Assembly (NCBI GenBank): GCA_016191815.1
Contig: JACPVI010000070.1
Location: 1-64,000 of the forward strand
Source: Myxococcales bacterium
Lineage (GTDB): Bacteria; Myxococcota; Myxococcia; Myxococcales; Myxococcaceae
Length of the DNA: 64,000 nucleotides
Direction of reading: 5' to 3'
Part shown: piece after piece, positions 2,765 to 32,710 of the stretch
How the letters are laid out: the number at the start of each line of letters is the position of its first letter
How positions within the stretch are numbered: the stretch's first letter is position 1
Notes under the pieces: model-generated
Databases searched by the model: none
Told to the model about the DNA's origin: nothing
What the model saw: only the letters and a program-made list of their open reading frames with translations
Translations under genes and position numbers: made by a program

Positions 2765-2774
2765 CGTCCCGCCA

Positions 2775-3859: not shown

Positions 3860-3878
3860 CGCCTGGAGGGTAGTGACG

Positions 3879-4469: not shown

Positions 4470-4558
4470 GGAGGAGCTGTCCGCATCAGCTAGAAGGCGT
4501 CGGACCTTGGGCCGACCTTGCCCCTGCCCTTAAGCGCGCTCTAACCTCGCCGGCCGCG

Positions 4559-7303
4559 ATGAGAGGGGGCGCCTTCCGACTGCTGGCCTTGGCCGCCGCT
4601 TCGTTGCTGCCGCTTCTGGCAGCGGCCGATCCGGTGGACCTCTTGGAGTCCGACGTCCAGGCGTTCGTGCAGGACAACGGCGCGATGGACGTCATCCATC
4701 GCCTGGTTTTTCGAGACAACGAGGGCCGCTCCTCCATCAAGCGGATGGGTCAATTCTACGAGCCGGTGCACTTCACCCGCGGGACGCTGACCGGCCCGGA
4801 GGGAGTGAGGCAGGTGCAGGCCGCGGCGCTTGGAGACGGCTACTACGCCGTCCAGTTTTTGGGCGCGCCGACCAGGTCCGGCCGCGACTACACCCTGGAG
4901 CTGCACTTCCGGTGCAACCGGCGCTTCGCCGAGCCGACCTCGAGGGGCAAGGAGGAGCTGCTCGCGGTGTGGTTCAACCCGGTCCGCTGGACACTGCCGG
5001 TCCGCCGCTCGGTGGTGAAGCTGGTGCTCCCGCTCGAGCTGCCCAAGGAGGTAGTCCGGCACGAGGACATCACGCCCGCGATGGTCGACGGCTTCGGGGT
5101 GGAGACGGATGAAGGCAACCTGGGCGCGCAGGACAAGTGGGCCTTCGTCTACGCCGACTACCGGGGCGGGCGGCGGCTGACCCTCTACGCCGAGCGGCAC
5201 CAACTGGCGCGCCAGGACACGCACCTGGTCCGGGTGTACCTGCCGCGGTCGGCGATGCCCCGGCTTTCGTCCGGGAGCGACGTGGAGGCGAGCGGCGCGG
5301 CGGTGGAGGAGCGCCTCACCGCCGAGGGCCAGGCGGTGCTGGTCTCGGAGTCCTACGAGATCTTGGGCGACGGAAAGCCGGCGCCCGGCACGCCCGCGAC
5401 GCTCGGGCCGAGGGTGCGGGCCTCCTTCGGCTTCGAAGAAGAGGGAAGCCGCAATTTCGTTCCGGCGCCCAAGCTCGGAAGCTCGCTCCAGGCGGCCACC
5501 TGCGATGCCAAGGTGGCCGGCAAGGAGGTGGGGTGCGAGCTTCGCGCGGAGGCGATGGTGCTCTCCGAGCCGACGCGGAAGGGCCAGCCCTTCGAGGTGG
5601 TGTACGTCTCCAGGGTGCAGTGGGCGCCGCGCTCGAAGATCCGGGTCCAGCAGCGGACCGCCTTCGTCGAGCTTTCGATCGCGGGCGCGGACGCTTCGTT
5701 CGCTCCGCGCAATCGCCTGCGGCTGTCGCGATGGGAGTTCTCCACCGGGCTTCCGGCTCCGCCCGGAACCGCGGCCGGCCAGTTGCTCGGCGAAGAGGCC
5801 CGGCTTCCGGTGGTGCTCATCGATCCTCCGCGGCAGGAGGTGAGGGTGAGCGCGCGCGATCGGGACTGGGGCGGCGACCCATATCCGCCGGCCTACGACT
5901 ACCCGGCAGTCTCCAGCACGGATCCGGAATGCGTGCTGGCGTTCGAGCGGCGGGGCGCGCTGGATGAGCCGCTCCGCGCGAGGCTCTTGGTGCCCGCAGG
6001 CCCCTACGGAATCGAGGTGCCCGCGCTCGCGGTGGCCCATGTGCTCGCCTCGAGGGCCATCGCCGGCGAGCTGACCCGGCGGGACAAGAGCGACGCGGAG
6101 ACTCTCGCCAGGCGCTCCTTCTACTGGGCGGTGCTGCTGTTCATCTTCAACGGGCCGCTGTTGGTCTTCTGGCTCTTGTCGGTGGGCTGGGGGCTGGCGA
6201 TCATAGACAAGCTGGCCGGCACCCGCCTGTGCAAGGACGTCCTCCTGCCGGCGGGGAAGATCGTCTGGATCCACCCAACCCGCGGGACGGTGTTCGGCTG
6301 GACCGCGGCCTTGGTCCCATTCCGGCTGTCGTGGATTGTCCTCTCGGGCCTGCTCGCGGTGACGGTGCGCCTCTTGAGGCTTCACCCGTACCTTTCCCTG
6401 GTCCTCAAGAAGAAGGCGCCCGATTACGTCTCGCCGGAGATCCTGGTGGCCACCTTCCGGAAAGAGGGCTTCGTCCCCGAGCTTCCTCCGGAGGAAGCGG
6501 CGGTGCTGCTCGACCGGCCGATCAAGGCGATCAACCTGGTGGTGCTGGGGCTGTGCCAGAAGCGCGCGGTGGAGCTGTTGAGCCGCAACCCTCTCCAGCT
6601 CCGGGTGCTCGACCGCTCGCTGGCGTCCACCGCCGCGGAGAACGCCCTTTTCCGCGCGCTCACCAAGGAGGGCACGCTCCCTCGCGAGGGGGTGAGGGAG
6701 GTGCTCTCCGCGCTGAACCGGTCGCTGCAGCCGAAGATCTGGCGGGCCGATCACGAGGCCACCCTCGGCGCGCAGCGGAGGGCGGCAGAGAGCGCCTGGG
6801 CCGAACTGGACGCGCTCCCGCCGCCGCGGAGGGTGGCGTACTTCGACACGCACTACGCGCCGCTGTACCTGAGCGACCGCTTCTTCGCCGGCGTGGACCG
6901 GAGCTTTGCTCCCATCCCCACCAGCGCTCCGCTCGACTCGCCGCTCCACACCCTGGGCGCGAGCCGGGAAGTGGCCTCGGTCAGCGGGGCGGTGGGCAGG
7001 GTGCAAGAGCTGGCCGAGGGAGTGGTCGAATCGGTGGAGAGCGCCGCCAAGGCCACGGTGGACCGCCTGGAGGGGCTGTTCAACTTCGACGGGAAGGCTG
7101 CGTCGGCCCCGGCGCGTTCCGAGGCGGTTGCGGCGGGGCTGGCTGCGTCCATCTCCGCCGGCTACGACGCCTGTCACTCGGCGTGCCACTCGGCTTGCCA
7201 CTCGGCTTGCCATTCGGCCTGCCACTCCGCCTGCCACGACGCCTGCGCCTGCCACTCGGCATGCCATTCGGCCTGCGTCTCCTCATGCGCGGGGAGCTTC
7301 TGA
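4559..7303 (+). CDS. Large secreted/membrane protein (914 aa) with an N-terminal signal peptide, ~2-3 central TM helices and a C-terminal (Ala-Cys-His-Ser)n repeat tail. Candidate protein substrate of the downstream rSAM/SPASM maturase
   Basis: Signal peptide [25 protein letters not shown]. The hydrophobic block is [28 protein letters not shown]...[12 protein letters not shown]. The C-terminus is [48 protein letters not shown], encoded by a 12-bp tandem repeat. Its stop overlaps the start of the next gene (TGATG). Confidence 0.7.
7176..7292 (+). repeat. Coding 12-bp tandem repeat (gcctgccactcg-like, ~9 units) that specifies the (ACHS)n tail
   Basis: Direct inspection shows gcctgtcactcg gcgtgccactcg gcttgccactcg gcttgccattcg gcctgccactcc gcctgccacgac ... 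Confidence 0.85.
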
Positions 7304-19420: not shown

Positions 19421-20254
19421 ATGCGGAACGTCTGGTTCGCGCTGGCAGCGCTGGCATTTGGCTGTGGCATTCCCAAGGAGCAGTTCGACGCCAAGGTGCT
19501 GGAGGCGGAAGAGCTGGCCCGGAAGTACCGCGACGAGTCGGGGAAGGCCACCGCGCTGGAGCAGCGGGTACGCGATCTCGAGGCGAAGGTGACCGCGCTT
19601 GCCGAGGAGCGGGCATCCTTGGAGTCCCGCCTCACCGCGTCGGAGGGGCAGCTCACCAACAAGGAGGCGGAGCGGCGCGCGCTCGAGGAGAAGAACGCCC
19701 AGCTCGCCGCCCTCAACGAGGAATTGTCGAAGTCGAAGAAGAAGCTCGCCGAGGCGAAGGAGGAGCTGGAGAAGAAATCTTCCGAGTACGAGAGCCTGGC
19801 GAAGAGCCTGAAGGGCGAGATCGACGCTGGGAAGATCGAGCTCTCCGAGCTGCGCGGGAAGATGACGGTGAAGATGAAGGACAAGATCCTCTTCGCCTCC
19901 GGCTCGGCGAAGATCGGCAAGGAAGGGCAGGAGGCGCTGGACAAGGTGGCCCAGGCCCTGGCCGGAGTGCGGGGGAGGATCATCCGCGTGGAGGGGCATA
20001 CCGACGACGTGCCGACCGATCCGAAGAGCCAGTTCCCCTCCAACTGGGAGCTTTCGTTGGCGCGGGCGATGGCGGTGGTGAAGCACCTGCAGGACCGCGG
20101 GGTGGATCCGACCAAGCTGTCGGCGGCGGGCTACGGCCCGTACCAGCCGGTGGCGCCCAATGACTCGCCGGAGAACAAGAGCCTCAACCGGCGGATCGAG
20201 ATCGTCCTCGCAACGGCGACGGGAACGCCGGAGGCGCCTGCCGCCGCTCGCTGA
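19421..20254 (+). CDS. OmpA/MotB-domain lipoprotein with an N-terminal coiled-coil
   Basis: Lipobox LAALAFGCG. The coiled-coil is followed by an OmpA-like domain (VEGHTDDVPT...NWELSLARA...NRRIEIV). Confidence 0.75.
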   Translation: MRNVWFALAALAFGCGIPKEQFDAKVLEAEELARKYRDESGKATALEQRVRDLEAKVTALAEERASLESRLTASEGQLTNKEAERRALEEKNAQLAALNEELSKSKKKLAEAKEELEKKSSEYESLAKSLKGEIDAGKIELSELRGKMTVKMKDKILFASGSAKIGKEGQEALDKVAQALAGVRGRIIRVEGHTDDVPTDPKSQFPSNWELSLARAMAVVKHLQDRGVDPTKLSAAGYGPYQPVAPNDSPENKSLNRRIEIVLATATGTPEAPAAAR

Positions 20255-20306
20255 TCGACGACGCACCGCGGACTGGATCTCCAAGGGCTACGCCGGGTAC
20301 CGAGGC

Positions 20307-20768
20307 TCAGCCGCACGGAGCGGTCGAGCAAGCGCCCCAGAGGCCGCGGCGCTCTGCCTTGGCCTGGGCCTCCACCTCTTCAAACTCCGCCTTCCGGCCG
20401 GCGCCTGCCGGCGGGATGAAGAGCACGCAGCCGAAGCCGCGCTCCACCATCAGCCGGTTCACCTCGCGGCCCTCCACCGCGACGTAGGCGAGCCGGCGGC
20501 CGAAGCGGTCCTTGCACTCGGCATCGTAGCGGAGCGTCACCACCTTCCCGAGCACCAAGGAGCGGTTGAAGTCGCGCGCCTCGGCGCCGTAGCAGTCGGA
20601 CTTCCCTCCGGTGGTCTCCGGCGCGTCCAGCAGGAGGTAGCGGATCTTCTCTCCCCCGGCGAGCGTGATGGTGTCGCCGTCGGTGACGTCCACCACCTCC
20701 GCCGAGTCCGGCCCGCACGGGGTGCAGGCCCACCCCGCGACGGCCAGCGCGGCGGCGAGAAGCTTCAC
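20307..20768 (-). CDS. Secreted staphylococcal-nuclease (SNase/thermonuclease)-like protein
   Basis: GTG start. VKLLAAALAVAGWACTPCG...VVDVTDGDTI...RYLLLDAPE...YGAEAR...DRFGRRLAYV are SNc motifs. The stop overlaps the start of the LTD gene. Confidence 0.7.
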   Translation of the reverse strand: MKLLAAALAVAGWACTPCGPDSAEVVDVTDGDTITLAGGEKIRYLLLDAPETTGGKSDCYGAEARDFNRSLVLGKVVTLRYDAECKDRFGRRLAYVAVEGREVNRLMVERGFGCVLFIPPAGAGRKAEFEEVEAQAKAERRGLWGACSTAPCG

Positions 20769-22486
20769 GGACACGTCTCGTTCACGTCCCCGGGTGTCCC
20801 GCGGTCGCCGAGGGTGGGCCCTCCGTCCGCGCCTCCGTCCGGCGAGCCGCCGTAGGTCTTCGCCGCCGAGGTGACGCAGAAGCTCCCCGCGTCGTCGTTG
20901 AGCACCGGGTCCAGCTTGTCCGCGCTGAGCTGGGCGGAGGCCCCCGAAATGGAGGTGGCGTAGGCGATCTGGTCCAGCACTCCGCCGTCCAGCCGGAGCG
21001 TGAGCGCCCGCAAGCCGGTATTGCCCAGGTCGAACCCGAACGTCCCCAGCACCTTGTCCGGCAGCCCGCCATTCACCGCCGGATCCCCGCTGCGGGCGAA
21101 CAGGACGTAGGCGTCCGCGCCCGGGCGCAGGCAGCTCTGCGAATTCAGCGACGCCCGCCCGGTGCCCTCGTTGACCAGCTCGAGGCCGTTGAGGTCCACC
21201 TCCGACTTCACCAGCACCTCGAACCACTCGCCGTCCGAATCCAACACCGCCGCCGGGTTGGGCATCAGCTCGGTGATGATCAGATCTCCCACCGCCGGCC
21301 TCACCATCGCCCGCGGCTGGCCGCTCGTCGGGTCCAGGCACTGGTTCGGATCCGGCGGGGTAGGGCAGGCGCTGTTGGGTGCGCCGGGCGTCCCCTTGTC
21401 CCCCGCCCCGTAGGTCTGGGTGGCCGGGCAGAACGCCGCCGGATCGTCGTTCGCGGCCGCGTCCAGCTTCGCCGGATCGAGCTGGCTCGCCACTCCGCTC
21501 TGCGCGGCCCCGTAGGAGATCTGGTCCACCCCGGCGTCTCCCACCCGGACGGCGATCTGCCCGCCCGAGTTGACCAGGCCGAAGGTGAAAGTCCCGGCCA
21601 CCTCCGCAAGCCCGCCATTCACCCCACCGTCCCCTTGCCGGGCAAACACAGCGTAGGTCCCGGTCGGGACCCGCAGGCACTTCTCCGCCGAGACCACCGA
21701 CTTGCTGCTGCCGTTGGACAGCTCGAGTCCGTTCAGGTCCACGTCTGCCCGGACCAACACTTCGAACCACTCGCCGTTGGTGTCGGTCACCGCCTTCGGA
21801 TCCGGCATCAGCTCGGTGATCACCAGCTCTCCAGCCGCCGGCGAGACCACCGGCCGGCTCGCGTTGGTGAGCGAATCGACGCAGCTTCCCGGCAGTCCCG
21901 CGCAGGGTGCGTTGGCCGCGCCCGGCGAGCCATAGGAGTTGGTGGCGAACTCCGCCGGGGCGTCGCACCAGTTGCCCTCGATGTCGTTCACCGCCGAGTC
22001 GGGCACGTACTTGCCGTCCAGCGTGCGCGCCCGGCCGGCCTTGCCGGCGCTGTAGTACTTCACCTCGTCGATCACGGAGCTGCCGCAGCGAAGGCCGATC
22101 GAGCCCTCCGAGTTTCCCAGGGACATCGCATCGCCGTAGCTGTAGCTCAGGAAGGCCGGATAAGGCTGCTCGCGCGCGTCGCCCAGGACGAAGTAGCCCT
22201 TCGAGGCCACCGTCCCCGAGCGGAGGACATGGGTCTTCGAGCTGGAGCCGTCCACCCTCCCGGCGTACAGCGTCAGCCCGTTCAGACCGATCGCCTGCCC
22301 GGTGGCGTTGAACAGCTCCAGGTACTCGTGGCCGGTGTCCACGCCCTCCGGGTCGTTCATGAACTCGCTGATCACCAGGTCTCCGGCGACCAGCCCCTTG
22401 CAGGCGCGGTCCGGAGGAGGGGGCGCGCAGGCGAGGACCAGCGCCAGGGCGCCTGCGGCGTGAAGGAAAGTGGGACGTGCGTTCAT
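20765..22486 (-). CDS. Lipoprotein with three lamin-tail-domain (LTD) repeats
   Basis: Lipobox LALVLACAPP. Three copies of the LV/IISE(L)MxDPxxV...EY/WxEL/V...GL motif at residues ~35, ~220 and ~400. Confidence 0.7.
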   Translation of the reverse strand: MNARPTFLHAAGALALVLACAPPPPDRACKGLVAGDLVISEFMNDPEGVDTGHEYLELFNATGQAIGLNGLTLYAGRVDGSSSKTHVLRSGTVASKGYFVLGDAREQPYPAFLSYSYGDAMSLGNSEGSIGLRCGSSVIDEVKYYSAGKAGRARTLDGKYVPDSAVNDIEGNWCDAPAEFATNSYGSPGAANAPCAGLPGSCVDSLTNASRPVVSPAAGELVITELMPDPKAVTDTNGEWFEVLVRADVDLNGLELSNGSSKSVVSAEKCLRVPTGTYAVFARQGDGGVNGGLAEVAGTFTFGLVNSGGQIAVRVGDAGVDQISYGAAQSGVASQLDPAKLDAAANDDPAAFCPATQTYGAGDKGTPGAPNSACPTPPDPNQCLDPTSGQPRAMVRPAVGDLIITELMPNPAAVLDSDGEWFEVLVKSEVDLNGLELVNEGTGRASLNSQSCLRPGADAYVLFARSGDPAVNGGLPDKVLGTFGFDLGNTGLRALTLRLDGGVLDQIAYATSISGASAQLSADKLDPVLNDDAGSFCVTSAAKTYGGSPDGGADGGPTLGDRGTPGDVNETCP

Positions 22487-22513
22487 CAGCGCCTCATCGA
22501 AGGTTGCCGGCCG

Positions 22514-23650
22514 TCAGTCGGGTTCGTCGGGCGGGGGCGGCGCGGGCTTCCCGTCGCCGTTCCAGTGCTCGTTGAGCAGTTTCTCCAGCTCGTGGCTGGG
22601 CGCCAGCACCTGTCCGGGGAGGCTCACCAGGACCTGGAGCCGGTCCACGTTGCGATAGCGGTCGCGGAACTTGTTCACCACGCCGCGGACCTGCACGTAC
22701 TCGCCCTTCTTGTGGAGGACGCCCGAGGAGAGCACCACGTCCTTGTCGAAGAACACCACGTCGAAGTCGTTGCCCCGGCTTCGGCCGAGCTTCACGATGG
22801 TCGGGCCCTTGTCCCCGAGCTGCACGTCGTTGACCGCCCCGAGCAGGACCACATCCTGGCCGAGGCGCTGCTCCAGCTTGAGGAGCGCGTCCCAGCGGGT
22901 GAGGGCCACGTACTCCGGGTTGCCGGCCATCTCCTTCTCGAAGCGGGTGATGGCCCGCTCCCGCTCGCCCCACCAGGCGTGGCGCTCCTCGTAGTCGTCG
23001 TAGTGCTGCTTGGCGGGATCCCAAACTCCCCGCTTGGCGTTTTGGGCTTCCTCTTGGGCCTCGAGGAACTCCCGGTGGAAGCGCCGCGAGCGGCCATACT
23101 TCACGAAGTACGGGCTCATGCCCGCGCGGACGCACTCCACGTTGAAGTTCATCCTTTGGCCGTCCTTCTCCACCACCACGTAGGCGAGGTAGCGGCCGTA
23201 GTAGTCGCGGATTTCCCCGGGGTGGTCGCGCTCCAGCCGGATCTTCCTCACCCCCTCGAAGAACTCCTGCGCCCACTTCTTGGCGTCCTCTCCGAGCGGG
23301 GTGGCCATCTTCACCGGCCGGGCCGAGTTGCCGCGCATCGCCTTCTTGTACTGCTCCCAGCCGTCGGCGAAGACGCGCCGCTCCTCGTCGGTCTTGAAGG
23401 TCTCCTCGGTGTCGATGGCCAGAAGCCGCAGCGAGTTGTCGAGCCCCTTCACCCGGATGGTGTCCCCGTCCACCACCGCGGAGGCGCCGTCGATGGCGAA
23501 CTCGCCCAGCTCGAGGGCGACCACCTCCAGGCGCCTAAGCGCCTCGTCGGCCCGCTCGCGGCTGTACCTTCGGGCCGCCCTGGTGTCGCTGCAGCCCGAG
23601 AGCGCGAGGAGGGCGGCGGCCAGGGCGGTGGAGGCGAGGGCTCGGTGCAT
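22514..23650 (-). CDS. Lipoprotein with an SNase/thermonuclease domain plus a C-terminal extension
   Basis: Lipobox ALLALSGCS. VVDGDTIRVKG...LRLLAIDTEE...YYGRYLAYVVVEKDG are SNc motifs. Confidence 0.7.
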   Translation of the reverse strand: MHRALASTALAAALLALSGCSDTRAARRYSRERADEALRRLEVVALELGEFAIDGASAVVDGDTIRVKGLDNSLRLLAIDTEETFKTDEERRVFADGWEQYKKAMRGNSARPVKMATPLGEDAKKWAQEFFEGVRKIRLERDHPGEIRDYYGRYLAYVVVEKDGQRMNFNVECVRAGMSPYFVKYGRSRRFHREFLEAQEEAQNAKRGVWDPAKQHYDDYEERHAWWGERERAITRFEKEMAGNPEYVALTRWDALLKLEQRLGQDVVLLGAVNDVQLGDKGPTIVKLGRSRGNDFDVVFFDKDVVLSSGVLHKKGEYVQVRGVVNKFRDRYRNVDRLQVLVSLPGQVLAPSHELEKLLNEHWNGDGKPAPPPPDEPD

Positions 23651-23715
23651 TCGCGGGCGGTGAAACGGCCAGGGACCAATGCCAGTCTAGCTCGCCGCCG
23701 TGGAAACCCATCGCG

Positions 23716-24138
23716 CTACAGAGGCTGCACCCCCAAGCCCAGAGCGTCGGCGTTCTCGCGCACCCGGCGGTCGCAAGAGAAGACGACCACCTCCTCCACC
23801 TGCTCCCGCCACAGCAGCGCGGTCGCGACATGGATGGCATCGAGGGCCCGAATCGGCTCGACCGGGAAGGTGTCGCGCCCCCTGGCCAGGACCGTGGAGT
23901 CGACCGCCCGCTGGTGCCAAGCTTGCTCCAGCGAACGCAGCTTCCCTCGAGCAGACCTGAGCAGCGCGCGGTCTGCACGGCCCTCGATCTCAGCCCAGCG
24001 AAGGGTCCGATGGGCCTCGAGGAACGTGAGGGTCGAAGTGACCACGCGCTTGCTGCGGCCCAGGCGCTTCTCGAGCCGCTGATCTCCCTCCAACAGAGCG
24101 CGGATCAACGCGCTCGTTTCGACGTACGCAGTGGCCAT
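23716..24138 (-). CDS. vapC: PIN-domain toxin VapC
   Basis: MATAYVETSALIRALL ... ALDAIHVATAL shows PIN acidic residues. It overlaps the upstream antitoxin. Confidence 0.75.
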   Translation of the reverse strand: MATAYVETSALIRALLEGDQRLEKRLGRSKRVVTSTLTFLEAHRTLRWAEIEGRADRALLRSARGKLRSLEQAWHQRAVDSTVLARGRDTFPVEPIRALDAIHVATALLWREQVEEVVVFSCDRRVRENADALGLGVQPL

Positions 24139-24434
24139 CCGCGCTCCCCGCGCACGAGATCGAGCAGTCGCTGGCCTTGTCCCGGCCCAAGGCCGACGCC
24201 CTTCCACCCCTTGAGCGGGCGGGCCCCAGGCGTCTTGGCGGGCAAAAGCTCGCCGCGTTCGGCGAGCGCCGCGATTTTCTCTTCCGCCGAGGGTTCGTGG
24301 CGCAGGCGCGCGATCGGGCGCAGCTCAGCGACCGCCTGACCGCGCTCCGTGATGAGGACGCTCTCGCCTCCCTTCACCCGGCGGACGTACGCGCTCAGGT
24401 GAGCCTTCAGCTCTCGGATTCCCGCCTTGCGCAC
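24105..24434 (-). CDS. Phd/YefM-type antitoxin
   Basis: GTG start. IRELKAHLSAYVRRVKGGESVLITERGQAVAELRPI matches the Phd/YefM core. The long ORF-track extension to 26093 is rejected. Confidence 0.65.
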   Translation of the reverse strand: MRKAGIRELKAHLSAYVRRVKGGESVLITERGQAVAELRPIARLRHEPSAEEKIAALAERGELLPAKTPGARPLKGWKGVGLGPGQGQRLLDLVRGERGWPLRTSKRAR

Positions 24435-24487
24435 GCCGCCACGGTATCCACCGGTGACCACAAATGCAATGAGGTGGTTACAAAGCG

Positions 24488-26737
24488 TCAGAACTTCGCG
24501 GACACCTCGAGCCGGAAGCGCTGCTCGGGGTTGGGCTTGCGCTCCTTGGAGGAGTCTCGCTGGTCCAGCCAGACGTAGAGGTCGTAGCGCCCTCGCACCG
24601 TGAGGGCCTTGGGGGAGATGACCGAGACGTCGAGGAACGCCCAGACAGAGCGCTCGAGGTAGTCGTCCTTGTCGTTGGCCTCGTCGAGGTAGCGGGCCCG
24701 GGCGCGGAGCCTCAGCCAGCTTTGCGCCTTGGAGCCCACCTCCACCCAGCCCGCGGAGTCCTGCCGGTAGCGATCCTGGTACTTCGCGTCGTCGAGGAGC
24801 GTGTGCGCGTAGTGGACCGCGAGGGTCAGCTTCTGATCGAACGGATCCACCACCACCTTGCCGGCGAGGCGCGCCAGCTCGCCGGAGCAGGTGAATTGGT
24901 CCAAAGCCTCGGGGTCGGGCCCGCCTCCGAGCGAATCGAACTGGTACTCCACCACCTCGTACTCGTAGCATTCGCCGCGGGCGCTCTTCTTGAGGTCCTT
25001 GTCCCGGTAGTCGGCCCAGGCGCTCGCCTTGAGCGATTTGAGCCCCACGAAGTCGACCCGGGCCGAGGTGTAGAGGTTGGTGCGGCCGGCGGTGCCCGCC
25101 AGCTCGCCGTCGAAGGGGAGCACCCAGAGGTCCGCCGAGCCGCGCACCCGCCAGTCCTCGGTCAGCCGGTCCCGGTAGGAGAGCCGGGCGCCCGCTTCGT
25201 TCCGGGCTCTCAGCCCGTCGTAGAGGTCGGGCCCGGAGATCGAGCCGGCGTAGGGGTTGGCGAACTTCCGGTCGTAGTAGCGAAGCGACAGCTCCAGCTC
25301 CCTTCGCTTGCTGCTCATGGTGGTGCGCTCGATGACGCCCAAGCCGCCGCCTCCTCCGGGGAGCGAGTCGAACGAGCGGGTCACCTCCATGGCCAGGTCC
25401 AGCGGCCCGACCCTGGTCTGCGCGTCCGCTCCCAGGGCGCCGAAGGGGCCGCCGTAGGGCCAGCGCGCCCACTCCTGGAAGTCGATGCTCGCTCCCTCCA
25501 CTCGCCAGAGCGGGGCGGCGTAGTAGCCGGTCATCCCGACCCGCAAGGTGGGCCCCGCCGCAAGGGTCGCGTTGCCCCCGCCCGCCAGCTCGTCGAACAG
25601 GCCCGGCAAGGTGCTGAAGGAGAAGCGCGGAGCGGGCGCGAAGGGATCCGACAGCTTGGAGAACACCTTGGGCGCGTCGCAGTCCCCATCGCCGTCGTCG
25701 TGGGGATCGGCGCAAAGGCGGCGATTGAAGAGCTGGTACTGGTAGACCGAGCGTGACTGATAGGAGCCGAACCCGTGGAGCGCCAGCCTTCCCGCTCCCG
25801 TCTCGAGGTCCTCCACGGTGAAGGCCATGCCCCGGAAGCGCTCGTTCCAATCGAAGTCCGGCGTGCCATAGCGGATGCGCTCCACCGTACAGGCGATGCT
25901 CCCGGGGTCGCCGACCGACATCCGGCACAGCCGGATCAAGTCCTCGAAGTTGCGCATGAAGACGACGTTGTCCGGGTAGAAGCCGTTGGGCTCGGTGCGG
26001 GTGGTGTTGTCCAGCGTGAGCCTCTGGCCGAAGCCGGCCTCGAAGTGGCCGAGCACTGCGGACCTCCCCGGCGTCTTCCAGCGGAGGTGCCACTTGGGGA
26101 GCTGCGGCGCATAGGAGGGCGGAACCGCCGCCAGCGCCTCTCGGTTGGGGTCGTAGCTCACCGTTCCGAGCTGCAAGCGGGTGGTGAGCAGGGCGGCCGC
26201 GGCGCTCACGTCGTAGGGCAGCTTGAGAGTGGCCTGCAGCGCGGCGGGGGGAGGGTTCCCATCCTCCGCCGAGTAGGCCGACCTCACCTTCGCGGTGCCC
26301 GAGAAGATGCGGACGGCCCGCGGCTCGACCACCAGGAACGCAGTGAGCTGCCTCAGCTCCTCCCCTGTGATGACTTGCATCTGCACCAGCTCGGCGGGAT
26401 CACCGATGCTCCCCACCTGCTTTCGGTAGAGGAGGATCGCGTCCACCTGGGCGAGCGTGAGGTTGGGCAGGACGTACAGGTCGCGGCGGCTGGCGCGGTT
26501 GAGATCAACCCCCTCGTTGATCAGCTCGACCAGCGCCTCCAGCGTGGCGTCGGAGATCTGCCGCTGCGCGTAGAGGTCGTAGAGGTCCTGCTCGTCATCG
26601 ACCTCGATCTCGATCTCGTACTCGGCCGCAGAGGCGAATGCCCCCGCCACCAGCGTCAGGGCAAAGGCGGTGATGCGCAATGTCCACGCCGCGCCCCGGA
26701 GCATTCGGCGGGGGAGTCTAGAACAGCCGCCAGCCAA
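24488..26737 (-). CDS. Large outer-membrane beta-barrel-like protein with an N-terminal ComEA-like helix-hairpin-helix DNA-binding module
   Basis: Signal peptide, then HhH LNRASRRDLYVLPNLTLAQVDAILLYRKQ. A long Gly/Tyr/aromatic-alternating region follows and the protein ends in a C-terminal aromatic (...EVSAKF). Confidence 0.55.
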   Translation of the reverse strand: MAGGCSRLPRRMLRGAAWTLRITAFALTLVAGAFASAAEYEIEIEVDDEQDLYDLYAQRQISDATLEALVELINEGVDLNRASRRDLYVLPNLTLAQVDAILLYRKQVGSIGDPAELVQMQVITGEELRQLTAFLVVEPRAVRIFSGTAKVRSAYSAEDGNPPPAALQATLKLPYDVSAAAALLTTRLQLGTVSYDPNREALAAVPPSYAPQLPKWHLRWKTPGRSAVLGHFEAGFGQRLTLDNTTRTEPNGFYPDNVVFMRNFEDLIRLCRMSVGDPGSIACTVERIRYGTPDFDWNERFRGMAFTVEDLETGAGRLALHGFGSYQSRSVYQYQLFNRRLCADPHDDGDGDCDAPKVFSKLSDPFAPAPRFSFSTLPGLFDELAGGGNATLAAGPTLRVGMTGYYAAPLWRVEGASIDFQEWARWPYGGPFGALGADAQTRVGPLDLAMEVTRSFDSLPGGGGGLGVIERTTMSSKRRELELSLRYYDRKFANPYAGSISGPDLYDGLRARNEAGARLSYRDRLTEDWRVRGSADLWVLPFDGELAGTAGRTNLYTSARVDFVGLKSLKASAWADYRDKDLKKSARGECYEYEVVEYQFDSLGGGPDPEALDQFTCSGELARLAGKVVVDPFDQKLTLAVHYAHTLLDDAKYQDRYRQDSAGWVEVGSKAQSWLRLRARARYLDEANDKDDYLERSVWAFLDVSVISPKALTVRGRYDLYVWLDQRDSSKERKPNPEQRFRLEVSAKF

Positions 26738-27362
26738 GCCCGAGCTTGATCTGCCAGGCGGGGCGGACCTTCGGCTCCCCCAGGGGCTCCTTGATCACCT
26801 CCGCCCCGAGCTGCGCCAGCACCGCGCCGGTCATCTCCTGGCCGAGGAAGAACTCGGCTCCGCCTCCCAGGAGCGATCGGAACCGCGCCCCTAGGGCCGG
26901 CGAGAGCGGCAAGTCCCAGGGCACGTCCAGCGCCACCAACACCCGCGCCGTCTCCGCCACTCGAATGGTGGAGAGGAGCCCGGCCCGAAGCCGCAGGCCC
27001 AAATACTGGAAGTTCTCCGGATCCACGTAGCGCGAGCCGGTGTCGTAGGTGAGCCCCAGGCCGAGCGAAGGCGCGATCTCGGCGATGCCCTCGCGGTAGA
27101 CCGTGAGCTTCCCGATGGCCTCCCCGGCGAAGGCCAGGGCGAGGTAGTCGAAGGAGGCCCGGCCCTCGAATTCCAGAGGGCCGATCCCCTGGCGGTAGGC
27201 GCCTCCCACCTCAGGGCCCCCGAGGAAGCCGTACAAAGAGGAGGAGCCCGCGCGCATCGCCGCCGGAGCGAAAGCCGCCCCTAACTCCTCTCGGCTCGAG
27301 GGAGCCTCCTCCGCCGACGCCGCGGAGGCAAAGAGCAGCACGCTGGCGACGCGTAGCGACAT
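26718..27362 (-). CDS. Small outer-membrane beta-barrel protein (start MSLRVASVLLFASAASA; C-terminal ...GWRLF)
   Basis: Signal peptide, alternating hydrophobic pattern, terminal Phe. It overlaps the upstream OMP gene by 20 bp. Confidence 0.5.
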   Translation of the reverse strand: MSLRVASVLLFASAASAEEAPSSREELGAAFAPAAMRAGSSSLYGFLGGPEVGGAYRQGIGPLEFEGRASFDYLALAFAGEAIGKLTVYREGIAEIAPSLGLGLTYDTGSRYVDPENFQYLGLRLRAGLLSTIRVAETARVLVALDVPWDLPLSPALGARFRSLLGGGAEFFLGQEMTGAVLAQLGAEVIKEPLGEPKVRPAWQIKLGLGWRLF

Positions 27363-27529
27363 GGCGGAGGCGACGATTTCCCCACACCGGCCCGCGAGCA
27401 AGTTTTTTGACGGATCTCGCCCCGCGCACATCGATCTAGATCCACCGCTGAGGTAGGATTTGGACGCAACTTGCGCACATTTCGGCCGAAAACCAGCTAA
27501 GCCTGGCCCCTCGCCGAGAGGATCGACGT

Positions 27530-29668
27530 ATGTCTGCGGTATTACAGAAAGTTAGAGCCCCCCGTCAGCCTTTGGAGGCCGCCTCGGAAGCCGAGGTGCA
27601 GGCCCCGATGGTGCTGGTGGTGGATCCGGGTGACAGCTCGCGGTCAACTCTTCAAACAACGCTGGCTCGGGAAGGGTTCGAGGTGGTGGCGGTGACGAGC
27701 GCGGCGGAGGGTAGCCGGCAGCTCGCTCCGGGGCGGCCGATTCCCTGGGCCGTGGTGGCGGAGGCCGAGCTGCATGGCGAGGACGGCTTTGCGTTCTGCG
27801 GGAGGCTCCGCGCCGAGCGGCGGACGGCCCAGTTGCCGATCCTCCTTCTCGGGCGGCGGCCCGAGGGATTCCACGGCGAGCTGGCGAGCGGCGCTGGCGC
27901 CGACGACTATCTGGCCCGGCCGGTGTTCGCCAAGGACGTGGTGGCGCTGGTGCGGCTGGCCACCGCTCCGCGCGGGCTGGACGGAGCGCTGCGCCTCTCC
28001 ACCTCGGTGGTCCCCATCCCTCATCTGTTGCGGGCGCTTTTGGCGGGCGTGAGATCCGGCAGGCTGGAGCTGAAGACCCGCAAGGGCGACCTGGCCTTCC
28101 GCCGAGGGAAGGTGATCGCCGCCTCCTTCGACTCGCTGCGGGGGCCGGAGGCGCTGGCGCGGCTGCTCTTGCTCGCAGACGGTGAGTACCAGGTGACTTT
28201 GGGGCCGTCGCTCGAGCGCGGCAGCATGCGCTACGGGCTCAAGGAGTTGGTGAGCGGGGCCTTCCCGCGCATCCTCCGCTGGCAGGCGCTGCTCGCGCGC
28301 AGCGTTCCGCTCGATGCGGTCCTCGCGGTTGATTTCGCGCAGCTCGCGCAGTGTCTGGACCAGTTGCCGGACGGGATCAACCCGTTGGTGCGTCTGTTCG
28401 ACGGGAAGCGCTCGGTGCGCGACGCGCTGGTGGACTCCGAGCTGTCCGAGGCCACCACCTTGGAAGTGGCCACCCGCCTGTACGCGATGGGAGTGATCGC
28501 TCCGGTTCCGAAGGAGCAGGTGCATGAGGTGCCGCCACTGCCGGAGCCGCGGCTGTTCGAGCCGAGCCAGTTCAGCCCGAGCGAAGTCGAGGGCTCGAGC
28601 GTGTTGCAACCACCCCGCCCGAGCCATGGTGCGGGCTCGAGTGCGCTGGAACCGCCCCGCCCGAGCCAAGTAGAGAGCTTGACCCAGCTCCGCCGAGCTA
28701 CCGATCCGCGCCCTGCGCCGCGCACCGATTGGTTCGCCGAGGAACAACCGGTTGGGGTGCAGGCCATAGCGCCCGAGCTGCTCACCCGGCTCTCCGACAC
28801 CGCCGAGTTGAGCCCGGAGGCGGCCGCCGGCTTGGAGGATTCGCTGGTCCGCCAGCTCGAGGCCTTCCGCGTCCCCGCGGTGGTAGAGCGACCGGTGCCG
28901 GCCCCCGTGCAGTCGGAGGTGGAGGCATTCGCGCGAGGGAAGGCACCCGAACAGGATGCCTCCATCGGGAAGGCGCTCGGCGCGGAGGGCCCACCGATTC
29001 CGCTCACCGACGTGATCTGGGAGCCTGAGCGGGCCTCCACATCGATCCCCAAAGCGTTGAAGCTTGCCGCCGCCGCGATGCTCGTTGCCGGCGCCGCGCT
29101 CGCCGCGTGGAGTCTCGCCAATTCGGAGGACCCCGCCCGCGCCGCCGCCGTGGAGGCCGCTTGGCCGGTCGCGGCACCCGCATCGCAGACACTGGACGAG
29201 TCGTGGCCGGTGGCTCCGCCTTCGCACGTTCCTCCTCAGGCGGCGCAGGCCTGGCCGATCACCGAGCCGCGGCTGGCGGAGCCGCCGATGGCCCCGCCTC
29301 CCCCGAGCTCCGCCCCTGAGGTGGCTGCCCCCACGATCGAGGAAGGGCTTGCCCTCTACAACTCAGGCCGTGCGGCCGAGGCGGCCGCGGTGCTCGCGAA
29401 GGTGGTGGAGGCAGCGCCTTCCGCCGAGGCCTGGACGCTGCTCGGGCTGGCGCGGTTCGATGCCGGGGATGGTCCGGGAGCCGAGCAGGCCGCGATGAAG
29501 GCGCTCGAGGTGGAGCCGAAGAACGGGCGCGCGCTGATCCTGTTGGCCTCGGTGTACTTGGATCAGGGCCAGCGGGCGAAGGCCGAGGCGGAGCTTCGCC
29601 GCTACTTGCAGCTCGAGCCCAACGGCCCCTTCGCCGAGGAAGCGCGGCAGCTTCTTTCCACTCGCTAG
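27530..29668 (+). CDS. Receiver-like domain + DUF4388 (PATAN-like) + C-terminal TPR protein
   Basis: The N-terminal receiver-like domain is MVLVVDPGDS...ADDYLARP. IPHLLRALLAGVRSGRLELKTRKGDLAFRRGKV fits DUF4388. The C-terminal TPRs are LALYNSGRAAEAAAVLAKVVE... Confidence 0.6.
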   Translation: MSAVLQKVRAPRQPLEAASEAEVQAPMVLVVDPGDSSRSTLQTTLAREGFEVVAVTSAAEGSRQLAPGRPIPWAVVAEAELHGEDGFAFCGRLRAERRTAQLPILLLGRRPEGFHGELASGAGADDYLARPVFAKDVVALVRLATAPRGLDGALRLSTSVVPIPHLLRALLAGVRSGRLELKTRKGDLAFRRGKVIAASFDSLRGPEALARLLLLADGEYQVTLGPSLERGSMRYGLKELVSGAFPRILRWQALLARSVPLDAVLAVDFAQLAQCLDQLPDGINPLVRLFDGKRSVRDALVDSELSEATTLEVATRLYAMGVIAPVPKEQVHEVPPLPEPRLFEPSQFSPSEVEGSSVLQPPRPSHGAGSSALEPPRPSQVESLTQLRRATDPRPAPRTDWFAEEQPVGVQAIAPELLTRLSDTAELSPEAAAGLEDSLVRQLEAFRVPAVVERPVPAPVQSEVEAFARGKAPEQDASIGKALGAEGPPIPLTDVIWEPERASTSIPKALKLAAAAMLVAGAALAAWSLANSEDPARAAAVEAAWPVAAPASQTLDESWPVAPPSHVPPQAAQAWPITEPRLAEPPMAPPPPSSAPEVAAPTIEEGLALYNSGRAAEAAAVLAKVVEAAPSAEAWTLLGLARFDAGDGPGAEQAAMKALEVEPKNGRALILLASVYLDQGQRAKAEAELRRYLQLEPNGPFAEEARQLLSTR

Positions 29669-29875
29669 CGCGCTGGAAAGTCCTCGTGTGGGTGGTCGGT
29701 GCTCGCGGGCGAGCCAAAGCACCAAGCCCCTGGAATCTGGTGCCCAGCCGGGTTTCCTGCGATCGCAGCCGACGCGTCAGCAACATCGGCAAGAGGATCG
29801 GCAAAAATATTGGACGCGAATGTAGATTCTGCTTATCACTGGCTGAGGTCGGACCATCCAGCAATCGGCAGATTG

Positions 29876-31111
29876 ATGAACGTCTCGGCAATGGAGCCAA
29901 CGCTGCCGATGGGCGGTCCGGTCGACGGGCAACTCTTCGAACGGTCCACCGAGCTCTTGGTGGGCGCCGCGCGGCTCGGGGCGCGCCTGCCGGAAGCGCT
30001 GCGACGCAGCCTGGCCCACCGCGTGCGGGCGATGAACAGCTACTACTCGCACCTCATCGAGGGACGGGCGACGCATCCGCTCGACATCGACCGCGCCCTG
30101 ACGAACGACTATTCGGCCGAGCCGAAGAAGGCCGAGCTGCAGTACGAAGCACGCGCGCACATCGGGGTGCAGGTCGAGGTCGAGCGCCGACTGGGCCAGG
30201 AATCTGACCTGGCCATCTGCTCGACCGCGTTCGTGCGGTGGCTGCACCGGGCCTTCTACGAACAGATGCCGGAGCAGTTCCGCTTCGTCATCCACCGCGG
30301 CGAGCGCGTCCCCATCGTCCCCGGAGAATGGCGCACCCGCGATGTGGCGGTGGGCCGGCACGTGCCGCCGGAACACGGGGCGGTCCCCAGATTCATGCAG
30401 CGCTTCGAAGAGGTCTACGACCCGCCGCGCATCCCCGTCCATCAACGCGTCGTCGCTGCCTGCGCCGCCCACCACCGCCTGGCATGGATTCACCCCTTCA
30501 TCGACGGCAACGGCCGCGTCGCCCGCATTCTCACCGACGCGTACCTGGTAAGAATCGGGTTCGCCGTGCCCCCTTTGTGGACGGTGAGCCGCGGCCTTGC
30601 CAACCGCCGCGACCGATACATGGAGGCGCTCACCTGGGCCGACGCTCCCCGCCGCGGCGACCTCGATGGGCGCGGACCGCTGTCACTCGAGGGTTTGCAG
30701 CGGTTCTGCCTCCTCATGCTCGACGTCGCCATCGACCAGGTGGCGTTCATGGCCGGCCTGTTCGACCTCGACCGACTCGAAGAGCGCATCGCCGCGTACG
30801 TTCACCTCCGCGCCACCGAACGCGAGCTGCGCCCGGAAGCGCGCCACCTGCTGACCGAGGTCTTGCACCGCGGGCCCATCGCGCGCGGCGATGCGGTTCG
30901 CGTGTCCGGCCTCGGAGAACGCGTCGGCCGCGACCTCTTGTCGAAACTGCTCCGGATGGGCCTGCTCGAAACCGACGGCCCCAAGCGGCCGGTGAGGTTG
31001 GGGCTGCCGGCGCGGGTATTGCCGTACTACCTGCCGAACCTCTACCCGACTCCCATCGAGGAAGATTTCCGCAACCTCCCTCCGCCCGAGCCGCCGAAGA
31101 ACGGAGACTGA
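29876..31111 (+). CDS. fic: Fic-family protein (HPFIDGNGRVAR motif) with a C-terminal wHTH-like region
   Basis: The canonical Fic motif HPFIDGNGRVARIL is present. The region upstream (29700-29900) has lower GC than the surroundings. Confidence 0.8.
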   Translation: MNVSAMEPTLPMGGPVDGQLFERSTELLVGAARLGARLPEALRRSLAHRVRAMNSYYSHLIEGRATHPLDIDRALTNDYSAEPKKAELQYEARAHIGVQVEVERRLGQESDLAICSTAFVRWLHRAFYEQMPEQFRFVIHRGERVPIVPGEWRTRDVAVGRHVPPEHGAVPRFMQRFEEVYDPPRIPVHQRVVAACAAHHRLAWIHPFIDGNGRVARILTDAYLVRIGFAVPPLWTVSRGLANRRDRYMEALTWADAPRRGDLDGRGPLSLEGLQRFCLLMLDVAIDQVAFMAGLFDLDRLEERIAAYVHLRATERELRPEARHLLTEVLHRGPIARGDAVRVSGLGERVGRDLLSKLLRMGLLETDGPKRPVRLGLPARVLPYYLPNLYPTPIEEDFRNLPPPEPPKNGD

Positions 31112-31900: not shown

Positions 31901-32092
31901 CCGCGGACAGGGAGTGAGCGGTTCAGAGCCAGGACCGGGCTCTCGGCCGGCCTCGGACATGTTCGCTCAGAGTGATGTGCGCGGGAGAGCGCCCGAGGTG
32001 TGATGGTCATTCCACGAGGCCGCCCGTTCTGCCCTTCGTCGTCGCGGCGGTTCGGGCGCCTCGTGGGGTCCATTGCTATCGTGAGGCCGACT

Positions 32093-32710
32093 ATGTCGGC
32101 GTATCCTCCGGTTCGGTCGTTCGATGAGGCGGCGCGGCTCGCGGGGGAGTACTTCATGGGGAAGTCGCCAATCCACGAGGCCGCCGAGGCCATCGCTCGC
32201 GCCCTTGCCGAAGAGGGCATCGACTTCGCCGTCGCGGGCGCGCTGGCGCTCAACGAGCACGGGGTTCTTCGCGCCACCGAGGACGTCGACCTGCTCATTA
32301 CCCGCGAAGGCTTGGCGCGCTTCAAGGAAAAGTGGCTCGGCCGAGGCTTCGTCGAGATCCGTCCGGGCGGGAAGCCGGTACGGCACACTGCCACGAAGGT
32401 GAGGATTGACTTCCTGATCAGCGGCGACTTCCCCGGGGACGGCAAGCCCAAGCCAGTCGCGTTTCCTCTTCCAGCGGGCGCCTCCGAGGCAGGGGGCCGC
32501 TATCCGGTCCTCTCGCTGCCAAACCTCATCGAGCTCAAGCTCGCCGCCGCGATGACCGCTCCCGACCGCCCGCGGGACTACGACGACGTCATCCGGCTCA
32601 TTCGCGCGCGGAATCTACCCGACGAATTCCAGCAGCGGCTCAGCGAGTACGTCCGCGCCGAGTACGCTCGGCTCTGGAACATCGCCCAGAAGCCCGAAGA
32701 CGAGTACTGA
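32093..32710 (+). CDS. Nucleotidyltransferase-fold hypothetical protein
   Basis: GIDFAVAGALALNEHGVLRATEDVDLLI resembles a minimal NTase GS...D.D core. I could not place it in a family. Confidence 0.35.
   Translation: MSAYPPVRSFDEAARLAGEYFMGKSPIHEAAEAIARALAEEGIDFAVAGALALNEHGVLRATEDVDLLITREGLARFKEKWLGRGFVEIRPGGKPVRHTATKVRIDFLISGDFPGDGKPKPVAFPLPAGASEAGGRYPVLSLPNLIELKLAAAMTAPDRPRDYDDVIRLIRARNLPDEFQQRLSEYVRAEYARLWNIAQKPEDEY

Follow-up and report, generated by a model that had tools for sequence, protein, structure and literature searches.

A Conserved Set of Four Genes for Lipoprotein Nucleases, a Lamin-Tail Protein and a Predicted ComEA-Type Barrel in Uncultured Myxococcota, with a Probable Role in the Use of Exogenous DNA

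Extracellular DNA is a major pool of phosphorus, nitrogen and carbon as well as a component of biofilms, and bacteria make use of it through secreted or anchored nucleases or through the pilus, secretin and ComEA route of competence. A 64,000-nucleotide stretch of contig JACPVI010000070.1 from a Myxococcales bacterium, referred to here as the window, contains three minus-strand lipoprotein genes at 20307-23650, transcribed in the order C-B-A, and raises the question of what their products do together and whether they do it alone. The first-pass annotation had read them as an operon of three, in which a lamin-tail protein flanked by two SNase-type nucleases forms a surface-anchored complex that binds and degrades extracellular DNA. 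The genes concerned, with two that are inserted among them, are as follows.

20307..20768, minus strand: gene A, predicted small lipoprotein SNase, 153 aa (open reading frame and Pfam SNase)
20765..22486, minus strand: gene B, predicted lipoprotein with three lamin-tail-domain (LTD) units, 573 aa (Pfam LTD)
22514..23650, minus strand: gene C, predicted lipoprotein SNase with C-terminal OB fold, 378 aa (Pfam SNase, AF2/Foldseek)
23716..24138, minus strand: vapC-like PIN toxin gene, an insertion and not a module member (Pfam PIN, 1.3e-06)
24105..24434, minus strand: Phd/YefM-type antitoxin gene, start approximate, same insertion (Pfam PhdYeFM_antitox, 3.4e-07)
24488..26704, minus strand: fourth module gene, predicted ComEA-like helix-hairpin-helix (HhH) domain and outer-membrane barrel, 738 aa (ATG at 26704)

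The three open reading frames at 20307-23650 lie at the coordinates and on the strand first assigned to them, and their packing is indeed tight, with A and B overlapping by 4 bp in a GTGA that combines the GTG start of A with the TGA stop of B, and with 27 bp separating B from C. A third-position GC content of 0.91-0.94 supports B and C as coding; A lies inside a longer open reading frame that extends upstream past its real start, and the GC filter gave it no separate score. The signal peptides or lipoboxes claimed for all three are likewise present, as by inspection each product begins with a hydrophobic signal sequence followed by a lipobox cysteine that aligns with that of its orthologs. 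The lipobox of C (LALSG-C) is canonical, that of B reads LVLA-C, and that of A (AGWA-C) is atypical at -3 and -2. From these motifs A, B and C are predicted bacterial lipoproteins (SPase II substrates), and none has a lysine at +2, which is an inner-membrane retention signal in M. xanthus.

The assignments of the two nucleases and of the LTD protein between them are borne out by profile matches. Gene A matches Pfam SNase PF00565 with 70.7 bits (1.7e-19; cut-off 21) and aligns with the S. aureus nuclease at 2.7e-15, with DGDT (including D32), R43, D48, E51 and R91 in the places of D19/D21, R35, D40, E43 and R87. The one departure is an alanine at the position of the calcium ligand T41, presumably tolerated because T41 binds calcium through its backbone carbonyl. 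Across 62 orthologs, these active-site residues and six cysteines show conservation of at least 90%. Gene C matches the same Pfam family at 6.6e-15 (55.9 bits, cut-off 21) over residues 74-211, and carries DGDT (including D63), R75, D80, T81, E83 and R153; the catalytic residues are invariant in 20 orthologs with the exception of T81, which is at least 90% conserved. A and C thus appear by sequence to be Ca2+-type SNase lipoproteins with intact catalytic residues. Of the two outcomes that would have refuted the first-pass annotation, a lack of LTD or SNase matches and a loss of these residues, neither was observed. NCBIfam equivalog cut-offs were reached by neither protein: A scores 63 against 250 for NucI (NF047694) and 52.1 against 180 for EcnA (NF047969), and C scores 47.3 and 56.5 against the same two thresholds. 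The C protein is 100% identical to an NCBI entry named 'MAG: thermonuclease family protein [Myxococcales bacterium]'.

The first-pass annotation had noted an extra C-terminal domain in C; such a domain exists, and its identity can be refined. The SNase domain carries an insertion of about 25 aa and is followed by a helical linker, and the roughly 160 aa after it have no Pfam match. In an AF2 model, residues 245-345 (pLDDT 71-92) fold as b1-b2-b3-helix-b4-b5, and a Foldseek search with this domain returns the anticodon-binding OB domains of AsnRS, AspRS and LysRS, SSB, RPA32 and Stn1, with E values of 2e-5 to 7e-4 against the aminoacyl-tRNA synthetase OB domains, SSB and RPA32. The tRNA_anti family PF01336 has no match in the window C protein at E <= 0.1, and a precomputed PF01336 record is present in a few C homologs only. 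At the level of fold, we therefore describe the domain as a predicted OB-fold nucleic-acid-binding domain.

The product of gene B matches Pfam LTD PF00932 in three stretches (1.5e-21, 77.2 bits, cut-off 34.3), corresponding to units of about 185 aa that start near residues 35, 219 and 400, share 39% pairwise identity between neighbours and contain about four cysteines each. These cysteines are conserved among 31 three-unit orthologs. By length, the B orthologs group at about 560-610, 750-800, 920-940 and 1118 aa. Their cysteine counts are mostly 13, 17, 21 and 25, respectively, and from these lengths and counts they are taken to contain three to six LTD units.

Comparison with other Myxococcota, the course that the first-pass annotation had recommended, both strengthens the association and changes its extent. 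Among the 49 related loci with enough flanking DNA, all 49 keep C-B-A, with overlapping or near-zero gaps, and an A ortholog follows B in every sufficiently long related locus. The gene for a large HhH-barrel protein lies directly beside C-B-A in 47 of these 49. The four genes are co-oriented; the gaps between them have medians of 6, 0 and -1 bp, and stop and start codons frequently overlap. In distant lineages the order is C-B-A-barrel, with the barrel gene downstream of A and not upstream of C, and the linkage is still kept where identity has fallen to about 45-50% for C and about 36-40% for the barrel. The unit is a conserved set of four genes and not of three; of the proposed operon, the idea of a functional unit holds, in so far as synteny points to one, but its membership was too small. 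A physical complex of three or four proteins is suggested by synteny only. The module was seen only in uncultured Myxococcota, which come from many environments, and all carriers found are metagenome-assembled genomes (MAGs).

The protein encoded at 24488-26704 is predicted to combine a large outer-membrane barrel and a ComEA-type domain in one chain. Proteins of this family are about 740 aa long, with an N-terminal HhH domain followed by about 24 beta strands, and that of the window ends in SAKF; its signal peptide is of the SPase-I type, with AxA-type sites in orthologs. The HhH domain matches Pfam HHH_3 at 31.1 bits (cut-off 27), and a profile of 36 orthologs matches ComEA (8dss_A) at an E value of 1.2e-7 with the entire HhH domain covered. 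In the predicted model (pLDDT 86.6) 24 long strands are joined alternately by turns of 2-6 and loops of 8-65 residues; the HhH domain meets strand 1 on the short-turn side. Because the short-turn side is periplasmic by the usual rule for outer-membrane proteins, the DNA-binding HhH domain would be periplasmic, lying beneath the barrel or plugging it from within, a placement taken from the secondary-structure string only. Structural matches were limited to wide barrels of 22-26 strands (ushers, MtrB and TonB-dependent transporters) that pass or hold macromolecules, with TM-scores of 0.3-0.4, and no close solved structural relative was found. Plug, TonB_dep_Rec, Usher, LptD and MtrB-type domains have no Pfam match in the protein. 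The family comprises about 355 clusters at 50% identity, annotated as 'helix-hairpin-helix domain-containing' or 'hypothetical'. Several cysteines are invariant in the barrel loops, and these, with the six conserved in A and the four or so per LTD unit of B, fit an extracytoplasmic, oxidising location.

The separation of the barrel gene from C by a vapBC pair is peculiar to this window. No PIN match lies between the two genes in any of 79 related loci, and in the nearest relative (L080) the barrel gene stops at 7272 and C begins at 7274. The insertion may uncouple barrel expression from that of C-B-A in this genome. A scan of 20000-27800 for sigma-70 promoters and terminators found nothing above shuffled sequence. 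Because a divergent sensor kinase and an NtrC-type regulator adjoin the module in L080, a sigma-54 consensus was also searched for; matches were no more frequent than expected by chance, and none lay upstream of the barrel gene or of C. Farther from the module, we note an AbiEii gene at 32000-32710.

Other neighbours are less constant. In 23 of 44 loci, all in one subclade, the barrel gene is preceded by a gene for a TonB_2-domain protein, which is absent from the window; this protein was considered as an energising partner and set aside, being restricted to that subclade, and the barrel having no plug or TonB box family signature. A 148-aa protein and a trypsin-like protease are syntenic in one subclade as well and, like the TonB_2-domain protein, are lost outside it. 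Neither the OmpA-lipoprotein, DsbD and SPFH genes downstream nor, upstream, the gene for a putative outer-membrane protein of 237 aa is conserved beside the module. An apparent fusion of C and B in one locus (L081, 1414 aa) was considered as Rosetta-stone evidence and rejected: within the open reading frame, a proline-rich read-through of low complexity is followed by a lipoprotein signal peptide, MSIAPPPPRPLARRLGVAPLASLALVALAAC, and because that internal peptide is intact, loss of a stop codon or an assembly error is likelier than a true fusion.

We consider that the four genes most likely form a module in the cell envelope for binding and breaking down exogenous DNA, most likely as food, in uncultured Myxococcota, and put the probability of this reading at roughly 0.55. 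The HhH domain at the periplasmic mouth of the barrel would hold or ratchet DNA as free ComEA does in competent bacteria, and the tethered C and A proteins would cleave it, yielding short oligonucleotides and 3'-nucleotides. An extended scaffold, a spacer or an additional binder could be provided by the multi-LTD protein, with its reach set by its variable number of units, and the products would be dephosphorylated and imported by unlinked functions. The barrel may, more speculatively, be a conduit for DNA. A bolder version, in which double-stranded DNA threads through a monomeric, roughly 24-stranded barrel in an import system free of pilus and secretin, with a ComEA-type ratchet, periplasmic SNase cutting and an organising LTD rod, seems to us rather unlikely.

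Several observations weaken the DNA-capture reading. The loci examined show no consistent linkage of the module to a nucleotidase, phosphatase or nucleoside transporter, the only candidates being a weak HAD/acid-phosphatase-like gene in one locus (L082) and Metallophos genes near L080 and L081. ExeM does not need its LTD to degrade DNA in vivo (PMC6085458). The promoter and regulatory searches found no recognisable site, the vapBC insertion may have uncoupled the barrel from C-B-A here, and all of the carriers are MAGs.

The alternative that survives best, which we hold to be unlikely, is one of surface display. A, B and C would be surface-exposed, the barrel would be their export or anchoring partner and not a DNA channel, and prey or matrix DNA would be cut outside the cell in the course of predation or matrix remodelling. 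LptD-LptE, MtrCAB and Slam-type systems offer analogues, and the surface is where the first-pass annotation had placed its complex; however, because the predicted barrel topology puts the HhH domain on the periplasmic side, digestion in the periplasm appears at least as likely as digestion at the surface.

It is far less probable that the module is a barrier, destroying foreign DNA as it enters the envelope and so limiting transformation or the entry of mobile elements, with no part in nutrition. A and C do match the PADLOC candidate PDLC01096, 'SNc+LTD' (2.1e-12 and 1.7e-09), a vapBC pair sits in the module and AbiEii is nearby. These PADLOC matches, however, cover the SNase part only (model positions 45-180 of 279 for A and 80-180 for C), B and the barrel have no such match, and a full-length match to this fusion model was not found for A, C or B. 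Moreover, the vapBC insertion is unique to this genome, the flanking genes elsewhere are housekeeping or lineage-specific and do not form defence islands, and phage DNA would not ordinarily come within reach of non-specific nucleases in the periplasm. Least probable of all is that the genes have no joint function, being independent secreted hydrolases and a porin unrelated to them that happen to stay together within a single lineage. Although the evidence for coupling is entirely genomic and three further genes are also syntenic in a subclade, the four-gene linkage outlasts both the divergence of C and barrel and a change of gene order, its stop and start codons overlap, and those other neighbours are lost outside the subclade, while the OmpA, DsbD and SPFH neighbours in the window are not conserved.

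If the reading of DNA capture and degradation is correct, the module joins ComEA-type capture to an outer-membrane barrel, tethered nucleases and an LTD scaffold, and it may be part of the feeding of uncultured myxobacterial predators or scavengers. The bacterial lamin-tail domain gains a testable context, as a separate protein with variable copy number and fixed partners, and a family of about 740-aa HhH or hypothetical proteins gains a functional hypothesis.

The closest known systems share parts of this arrangement. ComEA binds incoming double-stranded DNA in the periplasm and biases its movement inward, and with the PilQ secretin it belongs to the route of natural competence and also to that of 'DNA as a nutrient' in E. 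coli. The barrel protein resembles it in having a ComEA-type HhH domain that is predicted to be periplasmic. ComEA itself, however, is small, either free or anchored in the membrane, and acts together with a type IV pilus and a multimeric secretin. Here the HhH domain forms one covalent chain with a monomeric barrel (about 600 aa, about 24 strands), the neighbouring genes are for nucleases in place of ComEC or pilus components, and the module contains no com or pil gene; by sequence, then, the protein would be ComEA-like in its domain and not in its size or company. LptD-LptE, MtrCAB, ushers and SusCD likewise set large barrels of 22-26 strands beside lipoprotein partners, but the module barrel differs from LptD, MtrB, ushers and TonB-dependent transporters in its low TM-scores and in having none of the family-specific sequence domains.

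Among nucleases, A and C share catalytic fold and residues with Nuc and Nuc2 of S. aureus, and C has the combination of SNase and OB fold in common with YhcR of B. subtilis, which consists of OB folds, SNase and a 5'-nucleotidase. They differ from the staphylococcal family in being predicted lipoproteins of a Gram-negative type, neither secreted nor sortase-anchored, and in having no fused nucleotidase. ExeM of Shewanella oneidensis and Xds of Vibrio cholerae carry LTD, OB and nuclease on one polypeptide and function in degradation of extracellular DNA, nutrient acquisition and biofilm formation (PMC6085458); PADLOC, too, includes a model in which SNc and LTD are fused. The catalytic domain of ExeM and Xds is of the EEP (DNase I-like) type, and the single chain ends in a hydrophobic anchor. 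In contrast, the module divides its functions among three lipoproteins with SNase catalysis and three to six LTD units and has an obligate ComEA-barrel neighbour; the EEP domain has no Pfam match in A, B or C, and the C-termini of the three (APCG, ETCP and DEPD) are not hydrophobic, so that by sequence they would fall outside the ExeM/Xds type.

The catalytic parts of the module are thus ordinary, and the combination of LTD, OB and nuclease is already known from ExeM and Xds. No description of a C-B-A-barrel module was found in the literature, and the split architecture and the obligate link to a ComEA-barrel appear to be undescribed. Finally, Ca. Izemoplasma and other marine DNA foragers have clustered nucleases with a large protein combining nucleic-acid binding, nuclease and LTD, read as a sign of DNA foraging (PMC8289736). 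Those loci belong to a different phylum that has no outer membrane, and they have other nuclease types, other linked transporters and no fusion of barrel and ComEA. The myxobacterial module, should the rather unlikely reading of the barrel as a DNA-import channel hold, would be a self-contained DNA-feeding apparatus, distinct both from the competence machinery and from secreted nucleases.

The first-pass annotation described three tightly packed minus-strand genes at 20307–23650, encoding an SNase-like nuclease (gene A), a lipoprotein with three lamin-tail domains (LTD; gene B) and a second SNase lipoprotein with an extra C-terminal domain (gene C), and as a description of the genes this is correct in every particular. 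The three consecutive ORFs give Pfam matches to SNase, LTD and SNase, and a signal peptide with a lipobox is recognizable in each product. The GTG start of A overlaps the stop of B as GTGA, and the gap between B and C is 27 bp. In a window of ~69–70% GC, B and C are marked as coding by a third-position GC of 0.91–0.94; for A there is no separate value, since the mechanical ORF begins far upstream of its true GTG.

Genes of the module and the pair inserted within it
start GTG 20768, minus strand: gene A, 3′ part of a long mechanical ORF; 153 aa; N-terminus MKLLAAALAVAGWA↓C...; Pfam SNase 1.7e-19
20765–22486, minus strand: gene B; 573 aa; N-terminus ...ALALVLA↓C; Pfam LTD 1.5e-21, in three stretches
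22514–23650, minus strand: gene C; 378 aa; N-terminus MHRALASTALAAALLALSG↓C; Pfam SNase 6.6e-15, residues 74–211
23716–24138, minus strand: PIN (VapC-like) gene
~24105–24434, minus strand: Phd/YefM antitoxin gene
24488–26704/26737, minus strand: barrel gene; 738/749 aa; sole Pfam match HHH_3, a ComEA-type helix-hairpin-helix (HhH) domain

Both nucleases keep the SNase catalytic residues on alignment. Gene A aligns to S. aureus nuclease (E 2.7e-15) with counterparts of D19 and D21 (DGDT), R35, D40, E43 and R87 all present and Ala in place of T41, and its active-site residues, together with six cysteines, show at least 90% conservation among 62 orthologs. Across 20 orthologs of C (61–76% identity), DGDT, R75, D80, E83, R153 and the lipobox Cys are invariant and T81 is at least 90% conserved; a ~25-residue insertion follows ETFK within the SNase domain of C. 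Enzymes of the SNase family depend on Ca2+ and degrade DNA and RNA to 3′-phosphorylated mono- and dinucleotides. A and C both score far below the cut-offs of the NCBIfam equivalogs NucI and EcnA, and judged by sequence they belong to the family without being orthologous to any characterised enzyme. The extra C-terminal domain of C is present and reads as an OB fold: AlphaFold2 models it as b1-b2-b3-helix-b4-b5, with pLDDT 71–92 over residues ~245–345 (the whole model reaching only 64.7), Foldseek matches it to the anticodon-binding OB domains of Asn/Asp/Lys-tRNA synthetases, SSB, RPA32 and Stn1, and a precomputed PF01336 match occurs in a few C homologs. Gene C is thus predicted to be an SNase joined to an OB fold.

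B contains three ~185-aa units, which start near residues 35, 219 and 400 and share ~39% identity with one another. Its orthologs fall into classes with different numbers of units, ~4 cysteines being gained per LTD unit and conserved within the three-unit class, and some distant modules encode an extra single-LTD protein in a separate gene upstream of C.

Length classes of B orthologs
~560–610 aa: typically 13 Cys, 3 LTD units
~750–800 aa: typically 17 Cys, 4 LTD units
~920–940 aa: typically 21 Cys, 5 LTD units
1118 aa: typically 25 Cys, 6 LTD units

Ig-like units that vary in number and sit on a lipid anchor point to B as a putative extended spacer or scaffold.

A scan of one genome per GTDB species for C orthologs, using the C alignment and two peptide patterns from C, yielded 79 loci, every one from a metagenome-assembled genome (MAG), labelled as Myxococcaceae, Archangiaceae, Myxococcales, Myxococcota or Haliangiales or, in a few cases, just as Proteobacteria, Deltaproteobacteria or Pseudomonadota; as scanned with the two peptide patterns, the module appears to be absent from cultured myxobacteria. 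Loci were compared by tblastn with the window's proteins, counts being limited to the 49 with enough flanking DNA. The three genes stay together in the order C, B, A in 49/49, but the unit is larger than proposed, since the barrel gene directly adjoins C-B-A in 47 of the 49. It mostly lies immediately upstream of C (median gap 6 bp, range −4 to 90); the distant loci L056, L069, L073 and L076 have it directly after A, on the downstream side, in L065 it is upstream on the opposite strand, and no barrel gene was found within the DNA fetched for L070. Further contigs, reached through protein look-ups, repeat this pattern. In the closest relative, L080 (C 76% identical), the barrel gene stops at 7272 and C starts at 7274, and in L083, a 6.1-Mb MAG contig, stops and starts overlap across all four genes. 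Two further related loci, L081 and L082, have barrel homologs 40% and 36% identical, in the order LTD-C-B-A-...-barrel. None of the window's other neighbours (an OmpA lipoprotein, DsbD, SPFH and a 237-aa putative outer-membrane protein) is kept beside the module in the compared loci.

A 1414-aa called gene in L081 (3173–7417) runs from a C-like SNase-OB protein through a Pro/Ala-rich stretch into a five-unit LTD protein; we rejected it as a true C-B fusion, as the internal lipoprotein signal peptide is intact, and it probably reflects a lost stop codon (read-through) or an assembly error. Two MAGs carry two distinct copies of the module on separate contigs, with C 65% and 54% (L012/L059) or 63% and 50% (L045/L063) identical to that of the window; either one genome has paralogous modules or the bins are mixed. 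Of 44 long loci, 23 encode a ~376-aa protein with a TonB_2 C-terminal domain and a protein of 148 aa a short way upstream of the barrel gene, on its strand (for example L010:2521–3651 and L010:3662–4108, and 20+ further loci). All carriers of this pair belong to one 'Archangium'-labelled MAG subclade, both proteins are absent from the window, and the pair may represent lineage synteny or an energising partner.

ComEA is a periplasmic dsDNA binder that biases DNA movement inward. The barrel-family profile matches its DNA-binding domain (8dss) at 1.2e-7, and also the HhH repeats of EEPD1. When 1.84 billion representatives were searched exhaustively by profile, 355 clusters matched at E ≤ 1e-30 and 659 at E ≤ 1e-10, annotated at source just as 'helix-hairpin-helix domain-containing protein' or 'hypothetical protein'; barrel orthologs have AxA-type signal peptides and no lipoboxes. 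The AlphaFold2 model (pLDDT 86.6, pTM 0.84; 36-sequence alignment) comprises a signal peptide, a helical domain (~38–123), a ~10-residue linker and 24 beta strands of at least 9 residues (135–737), ending ...SAKF. Strand connections of 2–6 residues strictly alternate with connections of 8–65 residues, and the helical domain meets strand 1 on the side of the short ones. As periplasmic turns of outer-membrane barrels are generally short and external loops long, the model would place the HhH domain in the periplasm, or entering the lumen from the periplasmic side. This predicted orientation makes the surface-anchored complex of two nucleases and the triple-LTD lipoprotein, envisaged in the first-pass annotation, a possible but less likely arrangement.

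The gap between the barrel gene and C is 837 bp in the window, and a vapBC-type pair (23716–24434) sits exactly within it. No PIN or Phd gene lies inside the module in the compared loci (the 79 scanned and L080–L083), and the gap is therefore due to a vapBC insertion peculiar to this genome, where it may uncouple expression of the module; it is a clean case of a toxin-antitoxin (TA) cassette inserted within an operon. A few kb away, between the housekeeping genes YebC and RuvA, are genes for a Fic/DOC-domain protein (29699–31111, plus strand) and an AbiEii-type nucleotidyltransferase toxin (32000–32710, plus strand), and together with vapBC these show a region with several TA or defence-type insertions. 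The 237-aa (or ~214-aa) ORF at 26718–27431 (minus strand; ATG 27362 is the likely start) stops 13 bp short of the ATG of the barrel gene. It has a signal peptide, and its C-terminus (...GWRLF) is typical for small beta-barrels of the outer membrane; Pfam, NCBIfam and PADLOC gave no match, and other genomes have no counterpart beside the module.

Searches revealed no regulatory signal for the module, and no sigma-54 promoter consensus lies upstream of it in the window. In L080 a sensor histidine kinase and an NtrC-type sigma-54 activator (1933–4980) are divergent from the module. As a by-product, the sigma-54 pattern search picked out a tandem repeat with a 12-nt period (units resembling TGCCACTCGGCT) at 7172–7264 (plus strand), near the 3′ end of a 914-aa ORF (4559–7303), where it probably encodes a short peptide repeat. 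Neither a nucleotidase nor a transporter is consistently linked to the module among the compared loci. Metallophos genes lie within a few kb of it at L080:868–1932 and L081:13471–15144, and a HAD/class-B acid-phosphatase-like gene (a weak match, E 1.9e-5, below the Pfam cut-off) lies between A and the barrel gene at L082:6505–7506; these phosphoesterase-type genes are candidate nucleotide-dephosphorylating partners, with linkage that is not consistent.

On evidence that is wholly computational, the four extracytoplasmic proteins are encoded by a tightly coupled and evolutionarily persistent gene unit, three of them with nucleic-acid-binding or -cleaving domains in apparent working order, and we infer that they act together on DNA in the envelope. 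The simplest model would run in three steps: DNA would arrive at the barrel's periplasmic face, perhaps by way of the barrel, be retained there by the HhH domain, and then be degraded by the tethered nucleases, with the OB fold assisting C and the LTD rod organising or spacing the components. The likely purpose is nutrition, with DNA from the environment or from prey supplying phosphorus, nitrogen and nucleotides. This reading fits the roles of ExeM/Xds (PMC6085458), the DNA-foraging loci of other phyla (PMC8289736), and what is described for Myxococcota, namely large secretomes and a putatively predatory lifestyle (PMC11495043). A role in defence has a single point in its favour, a partial PADLOC match to an 'SNc+LTD' candidate model.

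We found no published description of this arrangement in open-access text, and class the module among envelope-associated DNA-degrading systems, a known kind. It shares a domain vocabulary (LTD, OB, nuclease) with ExeM/Xds, but whereas ExeM/Xds is one polypeptide with an EEP nuclease, the module is split, with SNase used twice and LTD multiplied; the combination of SNase and OB in gene C recalls B. subtilis YhcR. It is possible, though less likely than not, that the barrel represents a new way for DNA to cross the outer membrane. Its HhH domain is like that of ComEA, which cooperates with a secretin, whereas in the module the domain is fused to the barrel.
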